A DNA stretch of 63,942 bases, filler included, from Reclinomonas americana ATCC 50394 (taxonomy: Eukaryota): assembly GCA_048213135.1 (NCBI GenBank). It is 15 parts of 15 records of this genome, joined end to end, with 100 filler letters (N's around TTAATTAATTAA, not from the genome) between each part and the next. Parts side by side here need not be neighbours in the genome. Positions count along the whole stretch, not along the records: positions 1 to 4,002 come from AFZH01017920.1; positions 4,103 to 7,272 come from AFZH01017921.1; positions 7,373 to 10,050 come from AFZH01017922.1; positions 10,151 to 11,362 come from AFZH01017923.1; positions 11,463 to 14,188 come from AFZH01017924.1; positions 14,289 to 25,895 come from AFZH01017925.1; positions 25,996 to 37,794 come from AFZH01017926.1; positions 37,895 to 41,965 come from AFZH01017927.1; 7 more parts are not named here. One strand, given 5' to 3'. Shown one piece after another: positions 368 through 57,800 of the stretch. The notes beneath the pieces are model-generated. The model was given only the letters and a program-made list of their open reading frames with translations, had not been told where the DNA came from and searched no databases. The position numbers and the translations under genes are program-made. How positions within the stretch are numbered: the stretch's first letter is position 1; each line of letters begins with the position of its first letter.

Positions 368-3300
368 TCAAGAGATGCGTGACAAGGAGGGACAGCTGGT
401 GCAGACGATCACATGAAAGAACAACTGCAATACAAAGCCCGCAATATCATCTTCATCGCATCGCACCTCGACAGGAGCTGGAAGACGGCGTGCCGAGTTG
501 AAAAACTGCTCCCATTGTTCGCCACTGAGTTGCGAAAACTGCGACCAAGGAGATTCGAGCAGCAGCTTGCGAATCATGTCGGTCACTGCGATCGGTGAGC
601 ACAAATTACTGCGCGGACAGACACACTCATCATCTTCTCACCTTTGTCCCAGTTGTCCGTGGAACTGTATACAGACACACTCATCATCTTCTCACCTTTG
701 TCCCAGTTGTCCGTGGACCTGTATGCTGCCGCCTCAATATCCTTGGCTGCATTAATGTCCGCGCTATCGGCCTCCGTCAGCGACGACGTCAGAATGTTGC
801 GCGGGTAGCCAAAGAGCCCTACGGAGACAAAGGTGAGCACCAGCCTGCTGCTTCAAGAGGAGATGACGCGCGCCACGAACATGAGAAGAACAAGAGGTAC
901 TGCGCGGCCTCCTCCGGCTTGGCCCCGTGCTGGGCCAGGAATGCCTTGGCGAACTTGTGGCGATCCTTGAAGGTGGCGAGCGAGTCGCGGCTGTCGCCGC
1001 TCTTCTGGATGCCGAGTGCCGGCAACGCTTGACGCAAAATGGCGAGCTCCTTCTGCAGGCGCTTCAGGCGACTCGGGCGAATGACCTCTGCGGTGACCGG
1101 GAAGTGAGGTGTAGAATTCAAGAGAATAATGGGGGAGGAAGGAGCGCACCAGTGTCGAGCTCGCACGTTCGGTTCCACTGGTTGACGAATTCGTACAGGC
1201 TTCCGTCTGGAAGCTGTCGTATCACGGAGGTGAGATGCAGCTGAAGGCGGCGGGGGGATGAGAGCTGTCACAAACCTGACTGAGGAAACTCTCAGTGTAC
1301 CAAAGGAAAACCTTCTCAAAGGCTTGCCGCATAAAATCGGGATCGAGGGAACCGTCCTGGGGAGAGAAGAGTGAGATGATCGAAAAAGAGGAGAGAGACG
1401 AGGCAAAAAAAAGAAAGAGGAAGAGGATACAAGAATGGAAAGGACTATCTGATGAGAAAAGGGGGAGTGGAGATAAAAGAAGGGATGCGGAAGAGGAACT
1501 TGTCTGTGCCCTTGTGTAAAGGGGAGTGGGAGAGGCATGCAACGAAAGCATCCGCTCGATGCATGACCTGCGAACGGTGAGCAAGAGAATTCTCTAACGA
1601 AACACTCAAAACGTTCCACTCACGGTGAGTGCTGCGTAGCCATCATGCCTCACACTGTGCAAGCTACGTGAATCCCCAACTTCTAGTCGCGCCAACTTTC
1701 ACCAACTTAACTTCGCCTTTTTTGGGCCTCTGCCAGTGCAACTCTCAGTCCAATTTCCACATTGACTCTGATTACTCCCCCGTAACACTTGTTTAACCAT
1801 TTCTGTGCCATATCCACGTCCCCTTTAGTCATGTACCACTATGTCTCTCCCTTTCTCGCTCTCTTCTCTGCTTACTCTCTATCTGTGAGTCTTTCTCTTT
1901 CTCTCCTCTTCAGTATCTCTCTCGCTCACTCTCTGCCGTCATGTATGTCGCTCTCCATTTCTGTCTGGCTGATTATTTCTTATCTTTTCTTGCGCTGGTC
2001 TCCTTCTCTCTCTTTCACTTAATCCCATTCTCCCTCTCCCCCTTTCCAACAAAGCACCTCTTGAAACAACTGGCTGGTGACTGCACGCGTTTCCGACTCG
2101 CCAACCGTCAGGCACGAGTACGAGTTGACAATGTGCAGCGCATCTGTGAGGCACACCATTATGAGATATCTGTGCACAAACAAGAGCATTTTTTTCAACA
2201 ACAAACCGGCAATTGCACGGCGCAGCAAAAGCACAAGCTCATCGGTGGCCTGCTCGAGATCGCCCAGCTTGATGAGCAAAATGTGGAACGGGTTGTGATT
2301 CAGCGCGTCGGCGGGAACGGCGTAGTCGAATAATCGGTGTTCGGGCGGCCACTGCTGGCCGGCCGGCAAGGCGAATTTAGAACTCGGTACGAGATGCAGT
2401 CGGCGGATAATGTCGTCCTCGGAGGTGAAGAGCATGCGTGCCATGTCTTTGTCGACTGGCTTGTTTACATCGACAATCCACACAACCACAGGCTGCATGG
2501 GAAATGCATGAGGAGAAGAGGTGACGTCCTGAAGTAAAGGAGAAAAGGCGAGGGCTGAGGAACGAGAGGTGAGCAGGGAGAGAAAGCGACAAGGACGAGA
2601 AGAGAGAAGGAATGAGGTAGGGCCCAGAGGACATCATGGAGCGGGAAATAGAAAGTGGCAGTGAAAGAAAGAGGAAAGAGGGTGAGGAGTGGATGGCGTA
2701 GAAGTCGGAAAACAGGGAGAAACTAGCCGTAATCAGGAGTCAACGGGAAATGAGAGGGTGGAGACGGAGCGGGAAAGAGAGAACGGATATGAGATGGAGA
2801 GCGAGAGTGGCTAGAAGGAGAATAAAACGAGGACTACAGGGAAAGGATCAAGAGCAAATGAGAAAGAGGATGAGAGACGGACAACAAGACAACCGGTTCA
2901 ACCACAGTAGAGGGAGTGACAGTCGCAGACAAGGCAGAAGACGCATGACCACTTTCGCAGCGGTGAGAGAGACAGCAAGGCAAGTCAATACGCTTAATGG
3001 GATTGCGAAGGCAGAGAAAGAACGCATGTGAGAAACTAACAGCGAGAGCGACGAGATGGAGACCTCTGAGATACTCTTCGGCTCAGCATCAGGTCGTTCC
3101 GAATTTCGGGGAAACGCGCTCTGTAGTGAGAGCAACAATTGAACGAACAACGTTTCACGGAACGGCAAACAAGCAGGACGTACCGACAGCGGATCTCGCG
3201 GCGTAAAATACCGATAGAAAGCAGCAAGTGCTTTGCGATACTCGACTTGGCGCGACGTCACGCGGCGAAACTCCACCAGACTGACAAAGTTGTCGCGCGA

Positions 3301-25800: not shown

Positions 25801-26096
25801 TACGTACGTACGTACTACGTACGTACGTACTACGTACGTACTACGTACTACGTACGTACTACGTACGTACTACGTCGTACTCGTACGTACCGTTANNNNN
25901 NNNNNNNNNNNNNNNNNNNNNNNNNNNNNNNNNNNNNNNTTAATTAATTAANNNNNNNNNNNNNNNNNNNNNNNNNNNNNNNNNNNNNNNNNNNNAACCT
26001 AACGTACGTCCTTCGTCGACGAAGGACGGACGTAGGTAGGTACGGTCCGACGTACGTTCGTACGACGACGGTCCGTACCTACTCTCGCTACCTACC

Positions 26097-26137: not shown

Positions 26138-29100
26138 CTTAATGCCGTCTGCGAAATGCCCCTTGAAACTGTTGAAATCTGTTAACACTCTTCGATGAGC
26201 ACGACATTGCTTGTTCACGCCTTTCTCACGCAGCCGCCCGAGCTCACGGCCGGCGGCTGGTCATTCACCGACCTCTCGAAAAATGGTGCAGTTAGGGTGC
26301 GAGTTCCTGTCGTCATGTGGGTCAACGAGACGGTGGCCGAGCTCCAACTGGACGGCGATGCGTCGACGGTGACTCTGACAGTAGCCAGTCCGTCTGTAGA
26401 ATTTGACTGCAGTCCAGAGCCACTCGAACTGCACGTGCAGCCGTGTGAAGCGGGCTACGAGTGGGACGCGCATGATGGCTGTGTGCTTTGCGCAGCGGAC
26501 AAATTTTCTCTGTCCATCCCATCGTTCCAGCAGACATGTCGTCCTTGCACTGATGGTGCAACCACGGGTCGTGAGACTGGTGGCTTCATATGTAGTAACC
26601 GTACTGTCGATGTGCCCGACAATTACTGGACGTTGCCGATGACCGAGCTCAACGAGCTGAGCGACTTCAGTGCTGCAGGGCCGTACTTGTGTCCGTTTGA
26701 CTTTTGCAAGCGTGGTGATTCCGTGCCGATCGCTCATGGCGAATACTGCGAGGAGACCTCCAATCGAGACCCTGAATCAGCCCTCTGTGGAAAGTGCAAG
26801 GTAGTGTTTCCGTCTGTCACGTATGACAGCACCTCTACTCGCTCTCTCTGTCTCACGGTAACACGTAGCAAACTCCAACTCAACGGTACGCGATGTGGAA
26901 CTCCAAGTGCATTCCCTGCAACAACACGAATGCCGGCTACATTGTTTTGCTCGCACTCAAGTTGCGTTCCTCTTCCTACCTGAGCTACCGAAACTGTGTT
27001 CTGCTGACGATACGCAGTATGTGGGTCTATGTTATGATTGTGCATTTGCTTTTCCGAAAGGGTGGAGAGGCTGCGTTTGAAATGCTTCTGTTCACCTTGA
27101 ATGTGAGTTTCACTGTGCATGTGTTGAAAATACTAATGTTGGAGCTGCTGACAATGATACTCACTCTCCTTGCTCTGTCATGACACACTGGCAGACGGCT
27201 ACGCTTCTCTTCTATCCAGACATTGAGTTGCTGCGCTTCAAACGCGTCATTGATCTCTCGCTCCCCTGGTTGAGTGTGCTCGACTGCCCGTTTTACATGG
27301 GACCTGAGGGGGATATGTTGTCCCGGATAATTGCACCGTTTGTGTACGTTGCGCTGTGTTGGAGTACATTTGGCGTTCACCGGCTGGTCGGCTGGCTTCT
27401 GCGCCGCCGGTTCAAGTATCCGAAGAAGAATGTGGATATGACTGTGATGCAGCGTGTGACGCGATCCGTGTGGAAAAGTGCAAATCCGAATAGGTGTGGA
27501 GTGGGGAAAGGGATGAGGGGTGGGGAAAGGGGAAGAGGGTGGGGGGGAGAGGAGAGGGTGGAGGAGGAGAGGGTGGAGGAGAAGAGGAGAGGATGGAGGA
27601 GGAGATAGTGGAGGAGGAGAGGGTGGAGGAGACACAGGAGAGGGTGGAAAAGGAGAGGGTTGATGAGGAGAGGTTGGCGAGCGAAGGGGGAAGGTGGCGA
27701 GTGCGGGGGACTGGCGAGTGTGGGGAGTGGCGAGTGTGGGGAGAGAATGTTGCGGTTTGTGTGGGGGAGACGTTGGCAACGGTGTGCATGGAAGAGTGTA
27801 TGTGAGAAGAGAGTGGCGAGTGAACGGACAGAGGGTGCGAGTGTTGGAGACTGGCGAGTGTGGAGAGAGAGAGAGAGAGAGTGGCGAGTACGTGGGGAGA
27901 CGATGGAGTGTGGAGAGGGTGGCGAGTGTGTGTGTGTGTGTGAGGAAGAGGATGGCAAGTGGGGAAGAGTGGCCAGTGTTTGTCTATTCTGCTTGACTCA
28001 TTATGTCGACTGCAGCTACTTGTTGACGACGGTGCTTTTGTGGATCGGCGCATACGAAGACATGGCTGAAACGTCGCTTACCTTCCTCATCTCCTGCACC
28101 GACCTTATTAACGGAGTGTCATATGTGCTGTTTGCACCGGCGATTGAGTGTGGGGGCGAAACGTTGCGTTGTACGTGCGCAGCCTTGTGTTGTGCGTCAC
28201 AACACCTCTCAACACCTCTCTCTCTCTCTCTCCTCATTTCCCTCGTTCCCTTTCCCTCTCGCATTCTCCCTCGTTCGCTGTCTCTCTCTCTCTCTCGGTG
28301 CCGAGTGCTGAAGATTCATTTTTCTATCGAGGTGCTCATCTTGCTGTCATTCTTCTTGGCGTTCTATGTCACGTATTTTGCTCGGCTGCCCTCATTCTGC
28401 ACCCTCGTTACAGGTACCGCAAGCTGGAGCCATTGTTCGGCGCAGTTGCTGCAGTGTGTTTCATGCTCCCAATCGGCGTCGTAATGCTGACCCTGTGGTT
28501 CCGCAAAACGCGTCGTATTCCGGACCCTCGATCGCCGTACGAAAACCACGCCAAGCCGCATCATCACCTCGAGCCGTGGAAGTGGCTTCGTGTTGTTGTG
28601 CGTCAGCTGCTCGTGTGCACTTGTTTCCGGAAGCGCAAGAACCACATTCCCCACTTGTTCCGCGTCGATTCACATGACTACTTTACCACGGCGTCCGATC
28701 TGGGCACCTATGACGACGACGAAATGACTGCTACTGAGTCGATTGCACCCTCCATGGTTCGTTCCACGGCGCGGCAGTCCGCCGATCATGGGCGAGTTAC
28801 AGCTGGCGGTGGCCGTCGTGTGCCTCGTAGCGTCGTGTTTTCCAGCTCCACGCGCGACATGTCTGCGGCGGTGGGTCCCGGCGCCAGAAGGCCACACAGC
28901 CGACAAGCAGCGATCGGTGACGACCAGCTGGTGCCCTCTGCTGACGGTGCGGACACCCACAACGACGATGCCGCCACCGCATATGATGCGGTCTCCTTGG
29001 TTTCAGGCGTCAGCTTCAAGTCTGCGGGGGGTGCGGCATCAGCGGTTCGCACTCCCCAAGTGCTGCACGAGAATCCGTACAGGAAGAGACAGCGACATGT

Positions 29101-31949: not shown

Positions 31950-34900
31950 TCAAACAGCTCCGACGACCATGCCGCGCTGTTCCACTCTGTTGTCATCCTC
32001 GTGAGCAGCCTCCAAGAGTGGCACATGGAACGACGAACCCCTGGCGACTTGCACATGATGGGCCGCACCCACTTGCATCTCGATTTCTGACGTGCAAGCG
32101 GCGCATGTGTGAGAGGGGAAGGGATAAAGATAGAGAAAATGAGTAAGAGAGGGCAAAGAGAGTGTTGTGTATCGAGAATCTCCGACTCCCAGTCGACGCT
32201 CACCATCAGACACTGCCGATCCTCGCCTCTGCCGACGTCGGCAAAAAGCCATCACAGCCTTGATTCCAGACAGCACCACTGGGCCCACCAGCACCGCGCC
32301 AGCTAGTGCGAGTATTACGATACAAGTGACAACTTTGAAGTGCGTGGACGCCTGCGACGCGAATATGGTGGAGATGATGACCAGCGAGCCGAGACCAATG
32401 GCCTGCCAAGCGCACACACAATGAGAATGCATGTGTGCCCGAACTGAACAAGTGCGCGACTCACCTCCAGCACATTGTACAAGAGGTGGTCATATGCGCG
32501 AACAGCGAGGTGGACCGCGAGGAAGGCGACGCACACCACCCACAGTGCCAGTGGGAGGATGTCGATTGATCCCGTGGCAGCGAGAGGGAAGAGCACGGCG
32601 AGGACGATCAGACGTCGACATAGTTGATAACCTGGTGTCCCGGAAAAGTGTGAGCAAGAAGTCATGCTCGGTGAGATGGCGACTTTCATCTGTTATGCTG
32701 CTGGTGGGGCAATGTAACTATGTTGTAGAACTCAGCATCGCCTCACCGTGTGCCTGCTTGTCTCCCAGTCTTGTGGTGCGCATACGAGACTCTTTTCGAC
32801 AGTAAGTGGCTATCTGCAGTGCGTACTCAGGAAGCGCCATAATCTTTTCTTGAACGTGAGAGAGTGACACAGACAGTGCAGCGGAGAAGCAAACAATCAA
32901 GCATCAATGCGCCCGTGTGCATTCTGATCTCTCTGCTCTCAGCGACTCTTGGGCATGATATGTTGAGTGTACCCAGTAAATGTAAATCCTTATCATGCTT
33001 GAAAACGAGAGACTTAGAGAATACATCTACCCGTGCGCATTCTGATTTCCCTCCTGTCTAACACCCTTCCCTCTCGTGCCACTCACCTTGATACCACACC
33101 ACCGGAGGCCGGAAGTGATCGTACAATACACCAAATCGTCGCCGAGTCTGTCACAAAGGTGTGAGATTGTGACATTGCACACTGGCTACTCTTGCACCAC
33201 CTACCTTTTCGTCATGCAGTCTCTTACGCCGACGCAAGCGCAGGGTCCACCACACCACCAATACTGGCACACTGAGAGTGGCTGCCAACAGCACGGCAAA
33301 GAGAGGAATCAGTCGCTGCCACCTGTGCACACACATTTGCTAATCAGCACGGAACGAGACCGCCGCACTGCTGCAAAATCAAACGCAACACTCCCTCGTA
33401 GCACACAATGCTGGGCGAAAAGAGCACCACATGACTGTCGCCAACATCGGTGCATGTGAAGAACGTGATGGCTGTCTCTGTCAGGCCCTCATACGCTCCC
33501 AATAGCAGGACAACTGTTGTCAAGATGTAGCGGTGCGGCGATGCAACGAGCTTGAACCACACGACAAATCGTTGCCATCGTCCGCCCGTCGAGCTGCTGT
33601 GATGCAGTCGTCCACGATAGATGCAGCGCGCTAATGCTCTTGCAAGCAGCCAGTGCAGACAGAAACAGGCCCACAAGATCGCCAGCGACACAAACGGCGA
33701 CAAAACACGAGCCAACATGTCACCGACAGCGTCAGTGTTGAACGGGCAGCCGACATCCAGAATGCGCGGCACAACGAAAGTGAGCAGTCGGCTGAGAGAG
33801 ATGAGTTCCACATTGGGATAGAAGAGCAGTGTGGTGGTCTGGAGGGTGAAGATGATGATTTCGGCAGATGCTGCAAGCAGGGACGAATGTAAGTCACTCT
33901 TTGTGACGATCGACTCAGAACAAGGCATTCATACCTCCTCCAACATCAATCTGGAAGAAGACGTGGACGAATAGCACAAAGGCAAGCATCTTTGTCAATG
34001 TCCACAAGCGCGCCCATCCAGACGTGACTTCACAAGGAATGCACACTCCCTGCCACTGGGAATAGCCCTCCTGCACATTCCTGTAAGAATACCATCGTCC
34101 TCTCACTGCACCGACATGTGACTCACCTTACATGCTCCACACAGCGGTGAGTCTGACGCACGATTCGTCTCCTCATTGCAGTATTCGGCGTCGACGGCAA
34201 CCAAAGTTTGGCTGGATTCGTCACCGCGTTCGCAGTAATCATAGGGACACAGATATGGAACCACGGTTGATGGTGGCGACACCAGCGTGCCTGTCCATCC
34301 TTTGGACAAGACATCCTCAATCTGCCAGTCAGCATCAACTGGGAAGGTCCAGAATTGCGACTGCACTGCCATCTGCAGTCCGCCGAGGCAGTCGGCATTG
34401 GCTGGACACGGCGCGCACGTCTGGTTGAACGCACTGGTCGGCAGCGCGTACTGCCCAGGGGGACATTGCTGGCAGCCAATGTCCGTGTAACTGTAACCCG
34501 CAGGGCAAGCTGCCAGTGGCAATGAGAGCTCAGGCTGCGGGCCCACAAAGCCACCACCAGAGCCAGTGGTGATGCTGATGCTCACAGAGTCGCCGCTGTC
34601 GCGCAGATGCGCGCGAGTGCCTTGGGTCGGATTCGCCCCGCGCTCGACAATCGTCAACTGGAATGTAGCAGTTCCGGCCACAGTCGACTCGGACTGAGAG
34701 CTTGTCTGCATAAGCGGAGGGGGGTCGTCAGCGAGGCACAATCTTGAAAGAGGAGATGAGTATTCACGACATACCACTGGACTGCAACCAGAAGAACAAG
34801 TGACATGGAACTGGGCATTGTCCAGTGTGGACATGAATTGACCAAAGACATCAGTAGCATTCACCTGTATCACTCGCGACTGTTGGGGCGACGGATACGG

Positions 34901-37765
34901 CACGCCTCTGATCGAGTCCATCGCCACAGAGTATAGCGCTGCAGCGGAGCATGAGTCTTCAAAAGACAAGCAAACACATTTGTGTTCATCACATTGAACG
35001 CAACTGCTACCGACATCATTCGCCAGCGAGTTACTGGCCAGGTTACCAGTGACGCTTAATTGCCGCTGTTGCATCCACGACGACCATCCGCCAGCCGTTG
35101 TGAACGACTGCGATACAGCAGCCAGCGTCGACGGGTTGCCACCACCGTTCCAGAATACGCCGCCACCAGCACCCTCGCCAACTAAGCGGGGTTGACCCAG
35201 GGGCGCCACCGCTTGATTGCCAAAGACTGACACACCATGCAGGAGCACACCGACAGAACCCACAGTCGACTGTGTAATGTTGACCGCCAGGCCGCCGCCG
35301 CGTGCTCCACTCCAGTTGTCGGTAAATGTCGTTGAGACAAAGGAAGTCGTTGTCGTGTCCACCACCGATGCTCCGCCGCCATCACCATGCTCGGCCGTGT
35401 TGTCGACGAAACGAGTGCTTGAACAGTTGAGCATGGCAGAGCCACCGGCAAAGAGTCCACCACCAACTATCGTCGCCGTGTTGTTCATCAGCAGCGAGCC
35501 CGTAATGCTCACAAGCGGATTGTTGTCCGTGTAGATACCACCACCGCTCTCAGCTTGGTTTCCATCAACTGTCACCGCAGTCATCACCACTTGCGCAGTC
35601 TCCGCTGCCGACACTCCACCACCGCCACCACCAGCGACACGATTGGCGAGCAGGCTAGATCCCCGCAGCATGGTGCTTGAACTGCCAGCAGCATACAATG
35701 CACCGCCCCACAATTGTGCCAGGCCGGCACTCAGCGTGCTGCCAGTATCCGTCCACAATCCCAGTCCCTTCGCAGTCACATGACCACCGGTGGTGGCTGC
35801 CACGTTACTCCGGAACTGGGTTGTGGACGACGTGACATTCGCTGTTTGAGAAACAAACATGCCACCTCCGGCCAGGGTGGCGTTGTTGGTCGACACATAG
35901 CAGTTGGCAAGACTAACCTGCGACACACCATCGGCATACACGCCACCACCATCTGCTGTCGCCTGGTTGCTGGCGATAGTCGCTCCAATGAGCGAGTGCT
36001 TGCTGTTCTGGTCAGTGAACAGGCCACTGCCAAAGGGTGCAGAATTGCCGACGATGAACGCATCCGACCAGGAAGACGAGGACTGCAGGTCGGCAAACAT
36101 TCCACCACCGAAATGAAGTGCCTTGTTATTCTGCAATATAGAGCCACTGGACACACCGAGAGTGGCTGTGGCGGTGAGATACACGCCGCCGCCGCTCTGC
36201 TTCGCTTGATTGCTGTCCACAACAGATTGCGATTGAAGCTGCACTTGAACCTGCTCGGCACGCACAGCAAGACCGCCACCATATAGCGCCGTGTTGCTGG
36301 AGATACTGGTGTTGCTTATTGTAGCTGCGGTGGCTACCTCATTGAATACCACTCCACCACCGTATCCGTTAGGTGCTGAGTTGGACGAGACGAAAGAGTC
36401 TACGATCATGCAGCCTTGACCGCTCACGGCCACGCCACCACCACCGGTTGCCAGCGCATTGTTCCCCGTGACATGAGACGTGGAGAGAAGAGACTGCGTT
36501 CCCACCAGCACACCGCCACCAGTAACGAGCTCGCCAGACACAGAGTTTCCCGTGATGATACATCCAGTGGCCGAGCTTGATGCGTCGAGCAGCATTGCGC
36601 CACCTCCGTGAGAGCGACCGGCGATGACGAGTGGAACAGACGATTGCACGGAGTTGCCAGTCAGGATTGCTGAAGAAATCGCGGCACCGTCGAAGGCGAG
36701 CACCGCACCGCCACCGCAGAATCCACCAGAAGGAAAGAGTGCATTTCCAGCACCAGCGTCCTCCACACGGTTGTCGACGAACTGAGAAGCACTGACTGTG
36801 GCAGCAGAGTTCACAAGAAGCACTGCACCACCGCCATTGTGGTTGCTTCCTTGCCCGTTGAGCGTGTTGCTGAGGCCACCCGTACCGTCACGAAGAGACT
36901 GGTTGCCGATAAATGTGCAATTGGTAACGCTGAATGCCCCCTGAGAGAGATGAACAAAATGACGAGTGAGCGTCGTCCGTGCTCGGTGAAGTGGGCTGCG
37001 GAAACGGCGCAACTGCTGATGCCGACGGTGCAACCAGCAACGCCGCTCCTCCGCCGTTGAAGCCGCCAAAGGAGGCACCAACTATACTGTTGACACCACC
37101 CGCACCATTGTGCGACGATGTGTTGTTGAGAAACAGGGACTGACTGACCGTCTGCAGAGTGGCGGTGAGAAACTCAGGACTATACGAAGACAAATGCTCT
37201 CATTGACAAATAAATAAACCAGCACGGGCGCATCATCAAGACTGGGGTGAATAAGCAGAGCGCCTCCGCCGGAATAGATTGAGAGGCTGCTACCAGACGA
37301 CGTGTTTCCGCTGCCTCCGTTGCCTATGTCAAAGATGAGCAAGAATGAATTGCTGACATAATATTCCAATGCCTGCGTGACGAATGCGGGGGTTACCATT
37401 GCCTCTAGCGGAGTTGTTGAAGAACGTGCAACCGGAAATCTATTTCGGCAGAAATACACGACAACTGAGAAACACCCTGAGAAAATTGAAGGCGATGACA
37501 ACCAGAACCTCGAGAGTGCCGGAAAGAACGGCCAGAACGGCGCCACCGCCGTTGAGGTAGCCGGTGGCGTTGCCGTGCTTGGTATTGCTGCTTCCAACGG
37601 CATTCTTTGAGGCCACATTGGAGAGGAACGTACAGTCTCGTAAGGTGACCTGCTCAAGCGTGATAGTGAGATCAGGTTGCTCTGCACAGAGATAACAAAG
37701 CCGGAAACCTTGTACGAGTCGCTACCAAGCGACATGAGCAGTGCGCCACCTCCGCTCAAGGTCAA
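31950..37765 (-). CDS. Paralog of the 17559-30990 beta-helix/Cys-rich/multi-TM receptor-like protein (5' part lost in gap)
   Basis: Same architecture: GGG/GGA-N repeats, CPAGYSY..GCQQCPPG, YLCPYDYC..LCGACK, TLLFYP, RFGVLYDHFR, YQLCRRLIV, YNVLE. Several intron positions match the paralog. Confidence 0.85.
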
Positions 37766-37953: not shown

Positions 37954-38959
37954 CCACTCCTGAATCGGTGCGAGGTACGGCGTGCCGACTTCGGCATCCT
38001 TCAACACTAGGCGGCGGTCTTCTCCGCCCTCCCAAATCGCAGGCACAGGTGCCTGCACCCAGCACAATTAAGCACTCCAGGCAATAGAGAGACGCAGAGC
38101 CCTTTCCCTGCTTCCCGAACCTCCTCCTCAACAGCAGCCGCCGCACTGACTGCCGACATCGACGACTCGAGCTCCACCACCGGTAATATCAAGAACTTGT
38201 ACAGCACCGCGGCCTGCTGCTCTCCATCGAGCGAGGCCACCACCAGTCGACACGACCACACATCACCCGCACTCCACACCATGCGCAACGCCCGCCCCGC
38301 ATCCCACTCGCCCAGCACCGGCAACGATCCGCACACCGCCAACACTCGTCCGTGCGGCACATGCTTGTGCACGCGCAGCGTAACATCGCGCGGCTCCCAC
38401 AGACACTCCAACACGTGCATTTCGCCCTCGCTAGCAGTCGGCACCTCGATCAGGCGATCGGGTCCGCGTTCCCATTGCACGCCACCGTCCCAAACCGCGG
38501 CCAGTTTGCAGGCCAGTGACTGACGCGCAGGCAGCTGTCGCCACCAGAGAACGTGAGCGACATAGGAGGAGTAGGAGGCAAAGAAAATACAGTGGTGTAA
38601 CCTCGACAGCAGGCGATCGCCACACATGTCCCTCGGTCCAGTGTAGTGGCACTGCTCGTTCAATATTCCACTCACCCTGCAGTGCGGTATGCGATCAGCA
38701 CGCCCTTCTCTCTCGCACAGACATAGTGCCTCTCCTTCCGCATGTACGCAACGAGTCTCTCATGGGCGCCCACCAGCACCAATCGCTGACCAAAGGGGAG
38801 CACTCGAGTGACGCGGAATCGAACGCGGACAAGACTCGCCGGCTGCTCACACACAGCAGCAGCAGCAGCAGCTGTGTGACGACGCAAACAGCGACGTGGA
38901 GGGGGTGGAAGAGAGAAGAAGTGTAAGAAACGTGGGCGTCGACTGCGAGTGGTGAGCAT
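37954..38959 (-). CDS. Protein with two tandem CBM20 starch/glycogen-binding domains (3' end runs into gap)
   Basis: Domain 1: VRFRV..PFGQRLVLVGAHERL|GEWNIERAVPLHWTEGHVW..VQWERGPDR. Domain 2: HGRVLAVCGSLPVLGEWDAGRALRMVWSAGDVW..YKF..IWEGGEDR. Both match the CBM20 pattern. Confidence 0.85.
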
Positions 38960-44750: not shown

Positions 44751-47720
44751 CACCACTGGCGCAGCAACAACAGGTGAAGGCGGCTGGCCACCCGAGGGGG
44801 AGCCGGTGGTGCGCAAATTGGCAGTGCGGCTCATCAGCGCCGACGCACGAGAGGCGACCATTTCTGCGGCGTTATCAGCATCACATCAACAGCAATGAAG
44901 TGCACAACATTGCAAGACAAACCAGCGTGTGCCGACATTGGTCGTGCCGGAGCGCTCGATGCAACCACGGCAGCGTCATTTCCCACAAGCTGCGACGCAG
45001 TGGAACCAGGTGGAGTGAGCGGCAGAGGCTGAGACTCGGCACGGCTGGCGACGCTTGCTCGCATGGCCAAAACCGCGGGGTCCGTCTGCTCCGTCAGCAG
45101 CATCCGCTCAGCGGCACTCATTGACGACTCTGTAACATCACCTCAGCGACAGTCACTTCAAACATCACAAACTCTTATTCAACAAACCATCGTCCTCCGA
45201 CTGCACGGGTCGTCGGGTGGACGCGGCGGAAGGTGGAGTGGTGGACTGCGCGATCCCCGCCGAACGGGGAGGCGAGCGGCGCAGCGGACGAACCGGCAGC
45301 ACATCTTCATCCTCTGTTGACAAGCAACATGAGCGACTTGCAGAAATGGAGGCGCAACAAAAAGAACTGCAAAACGTACCGAGGTATTCGGACTCGTCAA
45401 AGAACTCCTCGCCAGCCACGTGGTACATGGGCGACACGAGACGCGATACTGCACAAGAGCAATGAGCAGTCTTTCTCAGCCCAAAGTTAACCTGTGTCAA
45501 AAGACAACGAGCGCAACGGTCGCGAATGGAAGTGAATGTACGTGGTGTCAGCATGGTGAATGCTGGTCCCTCCACCGGCATGCGCGCTGTCAACGCGCGG
45601 ATCTCGTCAAGCGACGCCGACGGCTCCAAGCCCGTCATTTGACGCACTTGCTCTGCCGTCACAACACGATGAGCTGACAATGGTCAACCGCAATCCACAA
45701 CACCAATCTACACGCACCCATATCCTCCAGCATGAGCGCGGCGTCGGCGTGCGAGAACAAAGGATCGGCGGCAAGCGGTGAGCTGCAGCATCATTATTTC
45801 AACCGTCAGGCACTTACACAAGATTCTCACGGAAAAAGAATGACGCAACCCCCAGTCGCCCAGAGAGTCGCCTGACCGATTGAGTGGACTGCGGGGCGAC
45901 AGCACCGAGGCCGCTCCCACCACCACATTCGTCGGCGCCGGTGGCGGCATCGCATGGGTGGCCGTGGGTACCTGTTGCTGGTGTTGTTGCTGCTGGTGCT
46001 GCTGTTGTGATGCCGATGAAGGCGGCGAGGTGACCGAGGTGGCGCCGGTGCCGTGCTTCTCCACCTGCAACTGCAAGTACAGCAGCATCATGTCCTCGAC
46101 GGGGATCTGCAAATAGCAGAGCAAAGTGAGCGTCGCGCATGTAGATAACAACTGAGTGCGAGACGCAACTCCAGGCTTGCGCCGCGGCGAGGTAATGTCG
46201 GATTCCGACATGGTGCCAGACGATGGTCCACCACGAGGCGATGCGAGCGGCGAGTTGCCACGCGAGCGCATCTCCTGACGCAGAGTGCGCAACACGTCGG
46301 CACGCACACGCGCACCCTCGGGGTCGGTCGGTGCCGTCACAAACTGATCCAACAGAGCCGAGACACCGTCGGCCGCCTGCATCGGCGGCACCTCAGTGTG
46401 CACCGTCGACGGCAGTGGAGGTACCGCAGCACGATGCACGGTCACCAAATCGCCACCCGGCGTGTACACCTCGTGCTGCTCGTGTCCGTACGCCTCCACA
46501 GGCTCCACATCTTTCGAACCGGCCAGCGCCTCAGCAAAACTCCCAGAGTACGACGGTGCTTGGCGCGCGGTCGATGCCACAGAATTCTCCGGCTGCACAT
46601 TGACATGCACGCTGCTCTCCACCACCACACGCTGCTTCGTCGAGTCCCACACACTGCGCACCGTCGGTGGCGAGTTGCCACTGACTGCCCGCGGCGACTG
46701 ACGTTGCGGAGGCGACGATGCGGAAGCACCTGCGGAGGACTTGGATCGCGGAGTAATCCCTCCTCGCGCAGCCAGCTGCTGCAGCCGCGGCGACAGCATC
46801 TGATCGGCCAGCAACGGAGCTGCCGTCTCTTCGTCCAGCGAATCGGTCTGTATGCAAATGAGCACGAGGAGGGACAGAGAGCAAAGGAGAGTGATCACTC
46901 ACCTCGACCGCTCGCCGCGCATTGCGGAGCATCTGCAGCTGCTGCAACAACTCCTGCTGCTGCTGCTCCCACGCGCGCGAGATGGCCGTCCGCGGAACAT
47001 GATGATGATGGTGGTGGTGTTGATGATGCGCATGCAACTGATGCCGCGAAGGCCGCGGCTGCCCGAGCGCCAATCGCGGCACCACCGAAGCACCAGCTCC
47101 GCCCACTTCATCACCGCCAGCACCGTCCTCCTCGTCGTCCTCGTCGCCCCAATCCGAATCACTGTCCATTATCGGCTCCGCATCGCCGCCACTCTGCTGT
47201 CGCTCAGCCGCCACCATCAATCTAACCATCGCACGCGCGCGCATGAGCAACACAAACAACAACAAGAGAGTGGCGCAGGGCGGACACAACACGAAACGCT
47301 GCAGAGGACGGGGACAACGACTTGCGAATGCGCATCGACTGGACCTTGCACGACACCGAGCGCCCACGCATACGATCAATCAACGTCGACGTTGCTTCCT
47401 GCAGCGGAACCGCCAACACACCATCGTCGACGTTTCGCGGCGGCAACGTCGAGCTTCGCGGCTGTTGCTGCTGACCGGCGGTCGGCGTCCCACCGCTGCT
47501 AAACGGCGATGCGTAGCCGCTGTCGTGCGAGAGCGGAGAGTGCGCTCCTGACGAGGAAGACGCCGGTGGAGGCGATGTCGCCGTCATGCCGGACATCGCA
47601 GCCGAGGGCGGTGTCTTGGGCGCAATGGGCGGAGGAATGGGCGCAGGCGGAGGAGGAGGAGGTGGCGCAGAGGCCACTGGTCGCGCACCACGTTGCAGAC
47701 CAACCACACGCGCGCGTCTG
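43382..47720 (-). CDS. Low-complexity proline-rich protein with at least 12 tandem WH2-like repeats
   Basis: About 9 phase-compatible exons joining the ORFs that end at 47222, 46531, 45708, 45165, 44834 and 43326. Repeat unit PEPPLPN[I/V]GAASAMLRRTAPKP. The start codon is uncertain (possibly 47827). A probable further exon lies at 43281-43177 (LVRRVVDAYAFVLATEE). Confidence 0.7.
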
Positions 47721-48294
47721 AGTGCGCGATCAAAAGTGAGAATGTCGGAAAAACACACACGCACGCACACGCACGCACGCCCCCAACGAGACACCGGGCG
47801 CACACCACACTGGGGTCTCACTCTCATGCCACCAGTCTCTCAACAACCAACATGAATATTGCTCTTCTTTGCTCGCCTCTCTCTCTCTCTCTCGCTCGCT
47901 CTGTCTCTCTCTCATTGCTGCTGCTCGCCCTACTCACCCGCGCATAGTTGCACCTCCACGCGCTGCAGAGGCCACCGCAAGACCACCCCTCCGCGGTGAC
48001 GACGACATGGACAATTGCACACAGAGTGGACAGTCGCTCGCAACCACTCAACTGTCCACCTCTATTACAAAGAACCGCCTTGGGTGTGCTCAGCGAGTTT
48101 TTAGAGAGTGTGTATTTGTGTGTGATTGCGTTGTTGCGATTGAGAAACACGTCTTCTTGGTGTCATGGACAATCCGCCAAAGTGGACAGTCGCTCGCCTC
48201 TCGGGCAACTGTCCATTCCCATCACAGCGCCTCCTCGCCTTTGTGCGCTCAGTGTGTGTTTGTCTGTGTGTGAGAGTGTGTGTGTTTGTGTGAG

Positions 48295-51200
48295 ATGGCC
48301 TCGTCGCACTTGTCACCGAGTGTGACTCAACTGCAAAAGGCGCTGTTGTATCAGGCTGAGATTTTGCATCTGCGCGGTCGAAGGTTCTCTATGTCTTTGT
48401 CTCTCATGAGTGTGCTTTGCGTGTATGTGTGTGTGTGCTCACTGTGTGCGGTTATGTGTATGTTTCAATAGGGCGTTGACTCGAGGCAAAGTTGCGGCTG
48501 TGACACAGAGCGCCATTTCGTTCAACACGCGCACTCGTCCTTTCTCTGCAACGACTCTCTCTCTCTCTTGTCACCAAGTCTTTCTCTCTCTCACTCACTC
48601 TGCGCTTGTCTCTGTGCGTGCGTGTGTGCGTGTGCGAATGAGAGAGGAAGAGTGCACGCTGCTTGCATATGCATCAGTGTTGTGCTTGTCTCTTGCACAG
48701 TGAGACAAGTCGCGTGATTCATGCCTCTTGTGCTCGTTGTCTGTGTGTGTGTGAGCGCGCGTGTCTAGTCACTCGCACACTCTCATGCACTTTGCGCTCT
48801 TTCTCTCACGCACTCACGCGATATCGAATCTCACCTTGCACGCACGCTGCTGCACATTCACAGTCGCACTCATTGCCACACACACACGCACGCGCACACA
48901 CACACGACGACATTCGTGCACATATTTTGTGTGTTGTTCGCGCCATGTCGCTCATCTCTTTTCCTTCTTCGTCTTTTGTGTGTAGGATCGCAAGAAGGTC
49001 CAAACGCAGATCGATGTCTACAGTGAAATGGTGGCGGAGACGGGCATGGCCGATCGCGTGCAGCGACTGACCGATACGGAAATTGCACGCATGCTGGAGA
49101 AGATCTCGTCGCGGTCAGTTGGCCTCACGCACACACACACACTTCTCTCCTCTGTTGTCTCTCTCTCTGGCATTCGTTGTGGCATAGGTAGCTCATGTGG
49201 AGGGCATCGCTCCTGGCCCCTAGACTCCGCTGATCTGAGAGCTGCACTGCTTCTCTCTCCTCCCCTCTTGGCTTTCCACAAGCAGCCTCTCTCTACCTGC
49301 TGTGTTGCATCGCTCTTCGCCTCTGCTCCCTTTTACTCGATCTTGCTTGCAATCATCGTTTCACAACCAGCCTCTCTACCTGCTGTGTTGCATCGCTCTT
49401 CGCCTCTACTCCTCTCTGCTTCCCCTTTTCTCGGTCCTGCTTGCAATCATCTTTGCGCAACCAGCTTCTCGATCCGAGAGCTTTGTGCATCGCTTCTTGC
49501 TTCTCTACTCCTCTCTTCTTCCCCATTACTCGATCTTGCTTTCAATCATCGTTTCACAACCGGCTCGTCAACCTGAGAGCTACACTGCATCGCTCCTGGC
49601 CTCTCCACTCTTCTCTTCTTCCCCTTTTCTCGATCCCGCTTGCAATCATCGTTGCGCAACCAGCCTCTATACCTTAGAGAAGTGTTGCTTCGATGTTGGC
49701 CTCTTCTTCCCTTTACCCGATCACGCATTGCAGTCACCGTTCACCGTTGCACAACCAGCTTCTCGAACCGAGAGCTGTGTTGCTTCGTTGTTGGCCTCTT
49801 CTCCCCTTTACTCGATCACGCATCGCAGTCACCGTTCACCGTTGCACAACCAGCTTCTCGAACCGAGAGCTGTGTTGCATCGCTCCTCGCCTCTCCTCCC
49901 CTCTTCTCCCTCGCGCTTTGCATTCATCTTCGCGCAAACAACCTCTCGATTTCAGAGCTGGTGTTGCATCGCTCCTGGCCCCTCCTCCCCTTCACTCGAT
50001 CCCGCTTGCATTCATCGTTTTCACAAGCGCCTTTCCTCTTTGTATGCTCTTTGCCCTTTCCTGCCTCTCTCACCCTCCTCCCTCCCTCCCTATCTCGCTC
50101 CACAGAGGCGCGGACTGCGACTTGACCGAGGTCCTCGCGCTATCGCCGATGAGCTCACCGGCGATTGGGCAATCGGTGACGGCTGCGTCGGTGGCGGCAT
50201 ACCAGCACCATCACCACCACGACGATGGCGACGATGATGACGATGCAGAGGAGCTGGCGCCGAATGGCGGCGATCGCAAGGCGATGATGGCCAATGGCAT
50301 CGCGCCGCGCGCACCCACTCCCAAGGTGTGTGCTTACTCCCTCTTTGTATGTGTGTTTATGCGTTTCGCGTCACTCACCGCGCCTCCGCAGACCGTGTCC
50401 CCGCCCAAGTCGTCTGCCCCAGCACCACCGCCACCAGCAGCCGCAGGAGCGCCACCGCGCTCAATGGGCTCCGTCGACGAGATGATGAACGATCAGCTGA
50501 CGGTGGAGCTCGGCGGCGCCAAGTACACCTTCTCGGTCGAGGAGACGCACAGCCTGCGCCTCATGTTCCAGTCGCAGTTTGATCAGGTGCGGCTGGAGCG
50601 CGATGAGCTGCGTCGTGCGGTGGAGGAGCTGTTGGAGCAGACGAAACGTGGCGAGGCGCGAGAGCGCGATGCTCTGGCGAGGGAGAGGGAGGCGCATCAG
50701 CGCGAGGCGGCCGCACAGGACCGCGCACGCGATCTGATTGCCGCTCTCGAGAAGCTCAAGGCGCACGAGTCGCGCGTGGCGCAGGACAGTCGCGAGGCCT
50801 GGTTGCAGGTCGACCAGTTGCGCCGCGATGTTGAGCGTCTGCGCAACAGCCAGTCGGAGGACCAGCTGCGGCGGGAGATTGATCGTCTGGTGACGGAGCG
50901 CGATGCGGCGCAAGAGCACTCGCGCAAGCTCACTCGCCAGGTCGACCTGCTGCGCCAGCAGATGCTCAACTCGGCGACGCCGTCGCGTGCCCACAGTGTG
51001 CCCGTCGTTGCGTCCTCCATTCCGCGACGTCTCTTCCTGCCATTTTAGCGCTTACTTTTTTTTCGCTGGCAGAGCACCGAGGCCGACGTGTTGAACTCGA
51101 GCGACGAGCTGGACCCGATGAGCAGCGACAATGACTCGCTGGCGGAGGATGCGGCGGCGGTGACGGCACCGGTTGGTCGCTCTTCTGCGGCCCCCGCTGC

Positions 51201-54200: not shown

Positions 54201-54616
54201 NNNNNNNNNNNNNNTTAATTAATTAANNNNNNNNNNNNNNNNNNNNNNNNNNNNNNNNNNNNNNNNNNNNAGCGGGATAGGGCAGCGCTTGGTGCGGTTG
54301 CGTTTTGGATGCTGATTTGTTTTGTGTGCAAATGTGCAGACGGCCCAACCCGCCGGGATCCAGTGGTGTCGCCGTGAGTGGCCCACCACCGCCAGTGCCT
54401 GCTGCACCGACAGCAGCCATGATGGCTTCGGTGGCGGCCATGGCCTCTGGCTCTGCCGCATCACAAGCTTCCTCGGCATCGTCGCCAGCCGGCGCTGCTG
54501 CAGCAGCGAAGCCTGTGCGCACCGCAGTGGCCGGCGTGAAGCAACGACGCCCGATTGGATTGGCGCACAAGCGACCACCACGAACCACCGGTGGCACGGA
54601 CTCTGACGAGCCTTGA
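48295..54616 (+). CDS. Coiled-coil + Ser/Pro-rich + CAP-Gly + EF-hand protein
   Basis: Coiled coil at 50540-50970. CAP-Gly motif VRYVGETHFSEGLWIGVEV..GKNDGTVDGVTYFKC..HGLF at 52238-52400, then EF-hand DIDLDGNSLLTADDL. Exons are phase-compatible from ATG 48295; the last exon ends ..DSDEP* at 54616. Confidence 0.82.
49280..50030. repeat. Intronic degenerate tandem repeat (gctgtgttgcatcgctc..ctcgatc..cacaaccagc)
   Basis: Motifs recur 5-7 times within intron 49113-50105. Confidence 0.75.
52760..53300. repeat. Intronic ~214-nt degenerate duplication
   Basis: aaacgagtggagatgttt at 52921 and 53135; gtatgcctgagaagaggctg at ~52978 and ~53203. Confidence 0.75.
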
Positions 54617-54829
54617 GGTGTGGAGGAAAAAAGAGTGAGGCACAAGAACGAGGAGGGAGGGGGGCAACAAGTGGAAAGTCTTTTTCTTTTTCTCTCTCAG
54701 TTTGTTCCTTTAAGCTGGAGTGTGTGTGTGTTTTTGTGTGTGTATGTGTTTTGTCTCTCTTGGCGAGGAAAGTAAGAAGCGATCTGATAAAAGCATGTGA
54801 GGAGTGGGTTTTTTTCGTTTGTGTTTTGT

Positions 54830-57800
54830 TTATCTGTGCTCCTCGTCCACTTGCATTTCTTCCATGCCTTCGAACGATCTGCACACACGCGCCCACCGAT
54901 GAGAGGAGTAAGAGAAAAACATCAATGGTATGGTGTGCGAACCCATCAGCTGGTGGAACGCGGATACCCGCCTGCTCGAGGCCACGGAGCACAGTTTGGT
55001 TCACTGCACGAGAGTGTGAGGGAGCAGCGAGAGGGAAGATGATGTTGGTGGTAAGGAACGGCTACCTTCGGCCAGGAAAAACTGCTCAGCAGCAGGAGGT
55101 GGTGGCGGCAGCAGTGGTGGCGCGTCGTCGTCATCGTCTTCCAACATTTCCCGCACCTCCTCGTCCTCCTCCTCCTCGTCCTCCTCTCCTTCTCCGTCGT
55201 CGTCGTCGTCCTCTTCTTCCTCCTCGGCACCCTCCATCTCGATGTCCTTTTTCACCGCGTCCCCTCCGTCGCTGGCGGAGGCTGCGCTGGGTTTGCTGGA
55301 GCGGTGGCGGTTCTTGGAGGAGTGCTGACAAAGGGGAAGGTGAGAAGGGGAAAAGGGGAAGGTGAGAAGGGGGAAGGAACAGAGGGAAGGAGAGGGGGGA
55401 AGGAGAAGTGGGGAAGGTAAAGGGGGAAAAGGGGAAGGAGAAGGGGGAAGGAACAGCGGGAAGGAACAGGGGAATGAGAAGGGGGAAGAACAGGGAGAAG
55501 GAACAGGGGGAAGGAACAGTGGGAAGGAACAGGGGGAAGGAACAGAGGGAAGGAACAGGGGGAAGGAGAAGTGGGAAGGAACATGGGGAAGGAACGGGGG
55601 GAAGGAACGGGAGGAAGAAAAGGGGGAAGGAGCAGGGGGAAGGGAGAGGGGGAAAGGAGAAGGGGAAGGAACAGGGGGAAGAAACAGGGGGAAAGGAACA
55701 NNNNNNNNNNNNNNNNNNNNNNNNNNNNNNNNNNNNNNNNNNNNTTAATTAATTAANNNNNNNNNNNNNNNNNNNNNNNNNNNNNNNNNNNNNNNNNNNN
55801 GAAGGAACAGGGGGAAGAAACAGGGGGAAGGAAAAGGGGGAGGGAGGAGAAGGGGAAAGAAAGGGGAGGGAACAGGGGGAAGGAACAGGGGGAAGGAAAA
55901 GGGGGAAGGAGAAGGGGACAAGGAACAGGAGAAGGGGACAAGGAACAGGAGAAGGAGAAGGGGGAGGGAACAGGGAAAGGCACAGGGGGAAGGAAAGGGG
56001 GAAGGAATAGGGGAAGGACCATGGTGGCGGAGAAGTAAGGAAAAGATGGTACTTGAGAGGAAAACCGCAAACAGAGCTTGTGCGCGGAGACCATGGATGA
56101 CAAAGATGAAAGCACTGGAGCGAGAATAGCAGGGGCAATGCAGAAGTACGGATGGATGGACACAGTGGTGCCTCGTGAGACTCTTTCTGCGAGCTCCACT
56201 CACCGACACGTCCGTCATGGGCACGCGGCACAGGGCATACATCGCCGCCGTGCATTCATCCACCATTTTCTTCCACGTGGCCGCCGAGTACCACCCGTGC
56301 TCGTCCTGTGGTGAGTGAGGAGCGAGTGAGGAGCGAGTCAACACTGAAAGAAACAGCTGAGTGTCACGAAACATTGCACTCGGGCTCCGTCTGCGCGGCC
56401 AACTCCTGCACGGCGGGAATGTTGACATCGCACACGGCGAATCGCTGCACCACTTGCGTGATTCCGGCGTCTGGGAAGAGTGGCACTTGACTGTCGATGG
56501 AGGGAGATTATCAACAAGGGAGTACGACATCAACAAACTCGAGGCAGAACGCAACGCGTCATGGAATTGTATGCCAGCAAAAGCCTCCTTGTTGAGCGCT
56601 GACAGTGAATGCAGGGTAAGCAACGGGAGCAGCAGCAGCCAACGCCGGTCACAAAGGAGAGTGAGAAGGAGACCGCGTAAAGGAATAAGAGTCAAGGGTT
56701 GAGAGCAGAGAACTCACTCAACAAAGTTCAGAAATGAAAGTAGGAGGAGGGATCACTTCCTGTAACATCTCATCGGCACGCACCTGCGCTGCGAGTCGAC
56801 TGCGCGTACACATTGTCGGTGAGGCGGAGCGGCTTGAATGCGGCTTTTTCCGCCTGCTGTCGGAGGCCGAACTTGGAGCGCAACACGCCGGGCACCTTGA
56901 AGTTGAGAACTTGGAACCTGTCGCACAGGGGGTGTGAGATGCGCGGCATGCGTGTATCGGTGGAGGCAGAACGAGGCGCACCGAGCAAACTGGGGATCCG
57001 AGCGCACGTCCACGCCGTAGCGCACCGACGAGCGAATCCACGGCCCGTCAAAGTATGAGAAGCACACCAGAGGGAGGTATCTTGACGGTGAGCAGGAGAT
57101 GAGCAGAGGGAAGGAATACGATGGCGAATAGGCTTCGTGGTCAAAACTTCTTCATCTCGGTTGGACCAAAGCCGGCCGGCAGCACGGCGAGCAGCGTGGA
57201 CTTGGTCACCACTGGCCGCCACTCGAAGAGTCGCCGGAGGCACGCCTCGACAGGTCCCATTTCTCCCACGGGTCGAGGCACCGATGCTTCGGTGGGAACT
57301 GGCGTCTGCAGGGGATGACAGTCAGAAGAGAGGAGGGAAACCGAGAGAGACAGAGTGGGAGAGAGCACCTCCAGATCGAAGCGAATTGTTGACGAGCGCG
57401 AGGTGGACGCAGAGGGTCGAGAAGAGGAGGCACCGGCGCGTCCTCCCCTTCCACCGGCGGCTGCTGCTGCTGCGGAGGACGCAGCAGAGGAGGCTGCGGC
57501 TTTAGGGGCGGGTGCCTTTGGTCGACCGAGGACATCGTCGGCGAGGAGCTTGCGTCGTTGTGCAGAGGCGGCGAAGCTGGCGAGCGATAAGACAAGCACA
57601 AGAGAGAAGAAGGATTGATAGACAAACGCACCGATACGACATGGTGGGCTTGTCGACACGGCTGAAGATGCCGGGCGGCATGTCGAGCAGGAGCGACTCG
57701 TCCGTCACCGACATGCTCAACTTGTCGAGCTCGTCTGCAGGGATGGGAGTGTGAGATGATGACTGACTGACTGGCACACAGAAGAGATTTACAGACCAAG

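Follow-up and report, generated by a model that had tools for sequence, protein, structure and literature searches.

How does a spliceosome find the start of an intron when the bases behind the first GT are displaced from the usual consensus? Few features of gene expression in eukaryotes are as conserved as the reading of intron starts, and to our knowledge recognition out of register has been described only for rare, exceptional sites of human genes. The question is raised by a 63,942-base stretch of the genome of Reclinomonas americana ATCC 50394 (hereafter, the window; about 54% G+C, 15 contigs of 1.2–11.8 kb). Ordinary introns in it begin with G^GTxxGT, in which the caret marks the cut, while a preliminary description reported 22 introns that begin with GTT, mostly as GTTGCGT, and took them for a second, shifted class. 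We refer to these as GTT-type introns. All 22 heptamers were recovered at their positions and on their strands.

Frequency and strand bias of GTTGCGT

GTTGCGT occurs 18 times on the two strands of the window, against a mean of 9.00 (standard deviation 2.86) in dinucleotide shuffles, none of 100 of which reached 18. Thirteen of these had been listed before; the other five are at 54297 (+), 5538 (−), 14729 (−), 23985 (−), and 31692 (−). A strict 3′ signal, defined as GCTNAY or NCT[GC]AY, then 4–28 nt, then YAG, at 45–110 nt, follows nine of the 18, as compared with 1,054 of 7,606 (13.9%) of all GT dinucleotides (binomial p = 2.9 × 10⁻⁴). Within the 50,014 bp having an assigned gene strand, GTTGCGT is found in sense and antisense at a ratio of 15:1 (p = 5 × 10⁻⁴), though this bias is slightly circular, since the strand assignment rested partly on introns. 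The ratios for the ordinary donors GGTGCGT, GGTACGT, and GGTGAGT are 7:0, 9:1, and 13:5, respectively; the bias of GTTGCGT is equally strong, and GTTGCGT is the commonest of these words.

The excess of sense over antisense matches is about 20 for GTTGCG[TC] and about 40–50 for GGTNNGT. GTT-type introns account for 12 of 29 in five curated genes, which were picked because they contain the sites. The share of the class is thus roughly between a quarter and 40% of introns, and the claim that it is mainstream holds. Among the 22 sites, 16 are well supported, 4 plausible, and 2 doubtful, and about four further candidates (5538, 54297, 58094, and 62342) were found (Table 1). With our own acceptor assignments, 15 of the 22 give introns of 57–76 nt, in agreement with the length mode noted previously.

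Reading frames and homology at the junctions

Gene models were built by hand around domain anchors (Mpp10, CBM20, beta-helix/PMP repeats, homeodomain, CAP-Gly, Tau95, and RRF), because codon usage was too weak for frame calls and automatic approaches overfitted. Pfam domains are absent from most open reading frames (ORFs) of the window. Ten models spliced at the GT of GTT comprise 4,266 codons without a stop; unspliced, they contain 9, 4, 19, 1, 35, 1, 6, 0, 13, and 19 stops. Moving 19 GTT-type intron starts by one base in either direction introduced stops in 33 of 38 trials, and these 33 perturbations fit only a cut before the G of GTT. Frames, homology, and motifs together support the sites as real 5′ splice sites, as had been claimed.

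The Tau95 gene (gene J, minus strand) has five introns, three of which are GTT-type, and 351 open codons. Across the intron starting at 57147, the Tau95 profile is collinear: residues 21–43 of the upstream exon correspond to profile positions 73–95 (E 0.19), and residues 2–30 of the downstream exon correspond to positions 106–134 (E 7 × 10⁻⁷). This donor is the only GT ahead of the stop of the upstream frame, two codons past the donor. The exon frame before 56372 likewise stops three codons past the donor. PDB searches with the C-terminal exons of the gene gave nothing useful. In the CBM20 gene, the CBM_20 profile is also collinear across 38752, the match ending at position 27 of the profile in the exon before it and resuming at about 56 in the third exon, with weak E-values (0.29 and 0.14); the spliced gene has 240 codons and no stop.

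Gene H (minus strand), with seven introns of which four are GTT-type, gives 702 open codons and has 19 stops when unspliced. A rival in-phase GT at 47285 (GTCCGC), with a poorer motif, accompanies 47297. The frame alone cannot exclude retention of the intron at 46169, because its length is a multiple of three and it has no in-frame stop. Three introns outside these genes should also be noted. At 51007, two ORFs (443 and 349 codons) are parted by a single in-frame stop, which the intron takes out to give a model of 778 codons with no stop. At 17949, the upstream frame stops two codons past the donor, retention would bring in 13 stops, and the spliced model is open over 387 codons, with further in-phase GTs at 17913, 17919, and 17922. 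The intron at 3382 takes out an in-frame TGA between two protein-like stretches and has the only in-phase GT ahead of that stop; the rival donor GTTGAGT at 3365 suits another, less protein-like frame.

Two paralogues lie on opposite strands of one contig, at 26186–30185 (+, gene E) and 37768–32200 (−, genes F and F2). E and F2 have in common a Cys-rich CIPC stretch and a multi-pass membrane part, with 43–57% identity in exons, and PMP-type beta-helix repeats lie upstream in F2/F. The membrane part found no relative in the protein collection or metagenome contigs searched. Four intron positions are shared between E and F2, and the others are not. Gene E has seven introns and 636 open codons (35 stops when unspliced), F2 has 260 codons, and F has 745 codons, the latter two without a stop. 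The donors 28163 in E and 33389 in F2 occupy a homologous codon position in phase 2, and both read GTTGCGT. The intron at 26961 is absent from F2, and the junction aligns without a gap only when the 57 nt are removed (score 53, as compared with 40 when retained and 32 after a shift of ±1). The position and phase (0) of 29099 are those of an ordinary F2 donor, 33204 (aag^GTAGGT), just before a conserved [TA]R[RQ]RF motif. The intron at 37013 joins two PMP-repeat-like frames of gene F. Retention would bring in 9 stops at 28163, 10 at 29099, 3 at 33389, and 16 at 37013.

Donor motif and 3′ signals

For comparison of the two classes, 17 GTT-type sites (the 16 well-supported ones and 5538, later graded probable) were set against 24 valid ordinary donors. 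The GTT-type sites lack the exonic G at −1 (2 of 17, as compared with 22 of 24 ordinary donors; Fisher p = 2.5 × 10⁻⁷). In the 22 sites first listed, G at −1 is found in two (17949 and 45849), as reported. Within the intron, the GTT-type sites have T at +3 in 17, G at +4 in 14, C at +5 in 15, G at +6 in 17, and T at +7 in 13; the minority variants are GUUUCGU, GUUGAGU, and GUUUUGA. In the ordinary donors, G is found at −1 in 22 and at +5 in 22, with variable +3/+4 (GA, GC, AC, TT, and others).

It had been proposed that both classes fit the one motif G-[G/T]-T-x-x-G-T. This is not borne out, because x-x is GC in 14 of 17 GTT-type sites but in only 5 of 24 ordinary donors (p = 1.3 × 10⁻⁴), and because shifted forms of the commonest ordinary donors show no sense enrichment (GTTGAGT 5:5, GTTACGT 1:1). 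The GTT-type donor is nearly a single word, GTTGCG[T/C], rather than the ordinary motif slid by one.

All 16 well-supported introns are GT...AG, and the acceptor is YAG in 14. A GCT[G/C]A[C/T]-like branch motif lies 9–27 nt before the AG in the short GTT-type introns, as in ordinary introns; no clear branch motif was found in the long intron at 28163. The shared branch and acceptor signals indicate that both classes are U2-type at the 3′ end. The two non-YAG acceptors are AAG at 57081–57082 (−) and GAG at 28304–28305 (+).

U12-type introns have a 5′ site of the RTATCCTT type and a branch site of the TCCTTAAC type. The GTT-type introns have neither; their 5′ word is GTTGCGY and their branch motif is that of ordinary introns. 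A pairing register with a bulge at +2/+3 predicts that the −1 G be retained, contrary to the frequencies above. In the window, self-BLAST gave no dispersed repeat family, and the introns differ from one another past bases 7–9, so that membership in an introner family finds no support there.

Several long introns consist almost wholly of simple repeats (60795–61244, 27494–28015, 29099–29722, and 17949–18109, all on the plus strand). The repeats are CCCTTTGCT-type CT repeats, GGAGAGG-type GA repeats, and CA repeats, and such introns yield long spurious ORFs on both strands.

Pairing with U1 and the proposed recognition

The energies of duplexes were calculated with the textbook 5′ end of U1 as given in the portion of PMC9311317 used here, from which the organism's own U1 may differ. 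Of 24 GTT-type sites, 22 form no duplex as strong as −4 kcal/mol, whichever register is taken (best values +0.5 to −3.8), the exceptions being 17949 (−7.9) and 62342 (−4.3). Ordinary donors give −4.0 to −11.7 kcal/mol in 25 of 25, in the normal register in 20; four of their coordinates in this set were 1–4 bases off, but the duplex was found nonetheless. GTAAGT, the best match to textbook U1, is rare, with 8 matches over the two strands of the window as compared with about 12 in shuffles, and GGTAAGT occurs only once on the sense strand.

The preliminary description had likened the GTT-type sites to rare human sites at which standard U1 pairs with its register shifted. This analogy is weak, given the 22 sites with no duplex beyond −4 kcal/mol, and an altered or duplicated U1 or U6, which the same description had also suggested, is the better reading because the duplexes with textbook U1 are weak. 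Textbook U1 would favor A at the positions of the fixed G-C core and does not explain it. The loss of the −1 G points to an offset and not to a bulge, since the G at +1 would take its partner, C9.

In the explanation that we favor and regard as probable, the GTT-type introns are ordinary short spliceosomal introns with a discrete second 5′ class, ^GUUGCG[U/C], that is read off-register by a changed or additional U1-like RNA. The cut falls before the first G, and GU stays the intron start. This G sits at the place of the ordinary exonic −1 G, and UGCGU at the place of the ordinary U-x-x-G-U. The pairing of the recognizing RNA is most likely offset by one base relative to the cut site, and the catalytic core may then set the cut at the only GU. 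The reading RNA, whether a U1 with a changed 5′ end or a second, U1-like RNA, is probably complementary to the GC at +4/+5; the argument for this complementarity is a count of pairs by hand. The analysis shows the introns with their lengths and frames, the statistics of the motif, and the common 3′ signals, and from these we infer the offset pairing and the change in a small nuclear RNA (snRNA). A stronger form, in which such an RNA reads a rigid GUUGCGU one base off so that about a third of introns represent a third start type beside the U2- and U12-types, is possible but tentative.

Several points weigh against the favored explanation. Five of the 38 one-base perturbations are silent. The introns of the models were selected by us, so that the open frames are partly built in, and all junctions were placed from frames, homology, and motifs. 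Retention of the introns at 26961, 35004, and 5538 leaves no stop, 46169 translates without an in-frame stop, and 11152 lies within a continuous ORF. The frames would also fit if both cuts fell one base further on (TT...Gx), for which we know of no precedent. Finding sites by their motif may under-count less conserved shifted donors and thereby exaggerate the one-word appearance; the sense and antisense counts are independent of model curation. The duplex energies leave out pseudouridines and U1 proteins. Finally, the 5′ end of U1 is, as far as is known, almost invariant across eukaryotes, which speaks against a changed U1.

Among the other explanations, it seems unlikely that textbook U1 itself reads these sites in a +1-shifted or +2/+3-bulged register that is tolerated more often in this organism, perhaps via U1C, LUC7-type factors, or U6. 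The GTT-type motif does align with ordinary donors when slid by one, its G, U, G, and U at +1, +3, +6, and +7 matching ordinary −1, +2, +5, and +6, and the requirement for −1 G is gone, as a shifted but not a bulged register predicts. Such registers are also experimentally proven in human cells, according to the part of Tan et al. (2016, PMC4856993) considered here. However, besides the weak duplexes, the shifted register is the best one at only 4 of 24 sites (−1.3 to −1.6 kcal/mol), and A would be expected at +4/+5, where GC is nearly fixed; GTTGAGT (5:5) and GTTAAGT (1:0) are unenriched. The registers are rare in human, too: the same part of that article gives 68 sites with a +2/+3 bulge and 51 with a +3 bulge among 10,248 predicted noncanonical sites.

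A dedicated system, in which GUUGCGU introns form a third class with their own snRNA pairing in the normal register while U2 still reads the branch, appears improbable. The branch and acceptor signals are those of ordinary introns, the motif is unlike the U12-type consensus, and the GTT-type donor 29099 and the ordinary donor 33204 stand at one homologous position of the paralogues, which implies that the two types interconvert easily. An Rfam scan of the window at the gathering thresholds gave no RNA family, and thus neither a U1 or U6 gene nor such an snRNA lies inside it. What speaks for this system is that the class is discrete, not graded, and that its conservation over seven positions (GTTGCG in 14 of 17, T at +7 in 13 of 17) is unusual for U2-type introns and resembles the rigidity of the U12-type, whose highly conserved 5′ splice site is read by U11. 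We give very little credence to an artefact of mis-called gene models or of a homopolymer overcall that turned GTGCGT into GTTGCGT, even though the draft assembly is fragmented, its contigs being joined by 14 N-linkers, and two listed sites are doubtful. An extra intronic T would not alter the −1 base, which nevertheless differs between the classes, the same heptamer stands at homologous positions of two paralogues, and the strand bias agrees with the frame, homology, and paralogue tests. It is just as improbable that the heptamer marks the terminus of an introner, a mobile element that generates introns, and that the class reflects recent insertions instead of a distinct way of recognition. 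Many introns do share the first seven bases, and three donors of one gene share nine (GTTGCGTTG), but past the heptamer there is no similarity other than the generic branch and acceptor signals, self-BLAST of the window found tandem repeats only, and one GTT-type intron is common to paralogues diverged to 49% protein identity. Even if an introner had spread the word, the splicing machinery must still read it.

Positions of the sites and other features of the window

The sites are listed in Table 1. The plausible site 35004 lies inside a 992-codon ORF, whose matches are beta-helix repeat proteins only, all distant (at most 31% identity). Its intron is one of those that have a length that is a multiple of three and no in-frame stop (34706–34774 (−), 34939–35004 (−), 46107–46169 (−), 26961–27017 (+), and 11090–11152 (−)), and whose retention would therefore keep the reading frame. 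For the same reason the frame is no test of 11152 in the Mpp10 gene; a search with the first exon of this gene gave no match. A full HMMER scan reached at most 54% identity over about 70 residues, the named hits of highest score were scattered (Selaginella, Chlorella, Gefionella, and Phalansterium), and the protein atlas yielded Mpp10 alone. The intron at 5538 passes between two protein-like frames, the second of which ends at the ordinary donor 5335, and leaves no stop when retained. At 54297, the upstream exon is unreadable because a contig edge is 27 nt away.

The donor-like word at 30185 reads GTTGCGTTG, as do the confirmed donors of two long introns of its gene; neither an acceptor nor a downstream exon was found for it. 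At 6570, a protein-like frame is followed by CCCTTTGCT-type repeats as in the intron of the RRF gene, and no acceptor was found. The continuity of ORFs at 58094 is 89 and 269 codons at offset 0, as compared with 56 and 54 at ±1.

Table 1. GTT-type introns and candidate donors in the window. A caret marks the cut; stops are in-frame stops after moving the intron start by one base (±1). Well-supported introns come first, grouped by gene.
Positions	Strand	Donor	Length (nt)	Branch, acceptor, or context	Gene	Stops at ±1	Grade
57081..57147	−	gaa^GTTTTGA	67	acceptor AAG	J (Tau95)	stops	well supported
56491..56555	−	cgc^GTTGCGT	65		J	2 and 2	well supported
56306..56372	−	aat^GTTTCGT	67	branch CTCAC	J	1 and 2	well supported
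47222..47297	−	agc^GTTTCGT	76	branch GCTCAT	H	9 and 8	well supported
46107..46169	−	gga^GTTGCGT	63	branch GCTCAC	H	3 and 4	well supported
45783..45849	−	ggg^GTTGCGT	67	branch CCTGAC	H	3 and 3	well supported
45449..45517	−	acc^GTTGCGC	69	branch GCTCAT	H	+1, 2; −1, none	well supported, weaker
38677..38752	−	ctc^GTTGCGT	76	inside CBM20 domain	CBM20 gene	6 and 2	well supported
51007..51072	+	gtc^GTTGCGT	66	branch GCTTAC		5 and 8	well supported
17949..18109	+	agg^GTTGAGT	161	CA-repeat		3 and 11	well supported
3317..3382	−	aca^GTTGCGC	66	branch GCTCAC		−1, 1; +1, none	well supported
26961..27017	+	caa^GTTGCGT	57	branch GCTGAC, acceptor CGCAG	E	22 and 17	well supported
28163..28305	+	aac^GTTGCGT	143	CT-rich, acceptor GAG	E	14 and 9	well supported
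29099..29722	+	cat^GTTGCGT	624	GA-repeat-rich	E	6 and 6	well supported
33323..33389	−	agt^GTTGCGT	67	branch GCTGAT	F2	2 and 1	well supported
36941..37013	−	gca^GTTGCGC	73	branch GCTCAC	F	16 and 20	well supported
34939..35004	−	gca^GTTGCGT	66	signals only: branch ACTCAT, acceptor CTGCAG			probable
11090..11152	−	act^GTTGCGT	63	conserved Mpp10 stretch begins exactly at acceptor (query residue 91)	Mpp10		probable
5477..5538	−	act^GTTGCGT	62	frame switch; newly found		+1, 3; −1, none	probable
54297..54339	+	gcg^GTTGCGT	43	branch GCTGAT, acceptor GTGCAG; newly found			possible
30185..30191	+	acca^GTTGCGT		donor-like, start of GA-repeat stretch	E		plausible
6564..6570	−	tctt^GTTGCGT		donor-like, start of CT-repeat stretch			plausible
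48491..48497	+	GTTGCGG		would require 19-nt exon (48472–48490) and ~495-nt intron			doubtful
1705..1711	−	GTTAAGT		purine-rich, upstream of likely start codon at 1565			doubtful
58017..58094	−	ctc^GTTCCGT	78	branch GCTTAT; signals and ORF continuity			further candidate
62279..62342	−	ttt^GTTGAGT	64	branch GCTCAT; signals only			further candidate

In the RRF gene, the donor tcg^GTGCGT is fixed; it is an ordinary one and opens a CT-repeat intron of 450 nt. In the homeobox gene, a 75-nt GC-AG intron, cag^GCATGT...CACAG^, is located at 40817–40891 (+); the homeodomain is collinear (KAQ^VGF) only with this junction, and the sole in-phase GT (40838) would add seven residues. Long tandem repeats whose copies are 72–89% identical are found within or beside coding sequence at 43382–44747 and 49273–50016. 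GTACGT has 97 matches in the window, as compared with 11.6 expected, and the repeat at 43382–44747 is probably the source of most of them, judged apart from the positions of the matches.

The contigs are separated by 14 identical linkers, N44-TTAATTAATTAA-N44 (e.g., 4003–4102, 7273–7372, 25896–25995, and 62666–62765), which have stops in all six frames. Genes such as Mpp10 run on across the linkers in order and orientation, the Mpp10 gene covering three contigs, so that the window reads as one scaffold from a draft assembly of a eukaryote.

Approaches other than the hand-built models were less useful. Self-training on codon usage drifted to low-complexity ORFs and was dropped, exhaustive GT-AG pairing of long ORFs gave thousands of spurious pairs, and a donor-agnostic dynamic-programming gene model was discarded, as it overfitted on both strands. 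A loose 3′-signal test, which 37–40% of shuffled sites passed, and k-mer enrichment upstream of acceptors were uninformative. In a test of ORF continuity at offsets of −1, 0, and +1, G^GTNNGT sites (n = 25) were best at 0 in 14, at +1 in 3, and at −1 in 5, with 3 ties; the corresponding numbers for the shifted class (n = 43) are 16, 9, and 9, with 9 ties, and are confounded by short exons. Apparent conflicts in continuity at 26961, 38752, and 56372 were gone after neighboring introns had been placed.

Relation to known systems and implications

Human atypical 5′ sites at which the register of U1 is shifted by one nucleotide (Roca & Krainer 2009, as described in parts of PMC4856993 and PMC9311317) resemble the GTT-type sites in that GU stays the cut site, the consensus fits only when slid by one, and the −1 G is dispensable. 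As those parts describe them, the human sites are rare and have A-rich cores that pair with textbook U1, whereas the word found here has a GC core, starts about a third of introns, and is unstable with textbook U1. With the human bulge registers (Roca et al. 2012), the GTT-type sites share that GUU and a consensus-like core can be drawn with a bulged U. However, those registers keep the −1 G pair and so favor −1 G, which is lost here (2 of 17). U12-type introns, too, form a discrete class, whose 5′ word is long and rigid and whose members share genes with ordinary introns, but their word is another one, and here the branch site is that of ordinary introns and no dedicated snRNA is known. In tunicates, lineage-wide departures from GT-AG are linked to changed U2AF and to N6-methyladenosine in snRNA, according to the portion of PMC13326754 used here. 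The likeness is that splice-site rules shift genome-wide together with the recognition machinery; as that portion has it, tunicates change the terminal dinucleotides, whereas here GT-AG is kept and the positions after GT are altered.

Among the matches listed in the open-access literature, which for the word itself were primers and unrelated sequences, there was no organism that uses GTTGCGT or GUUGCGU as a signal for splicing or in which a shifted class is abundant; the publication of the genome itself may already describe the class. These observations suggest that the splicing machinery of R. americana reads intron starts in an unusual way. One off-register word that starts about a third of introns would, if true, be a natural experiment, bearing on the uncoupling of U1 binding from cut-site choice and on the way in which U6 deals with a core that lies one base off. 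In this organism, a large share of genes would be mis-annotated by gene finders whose training set has GTxxGT with G at +5.

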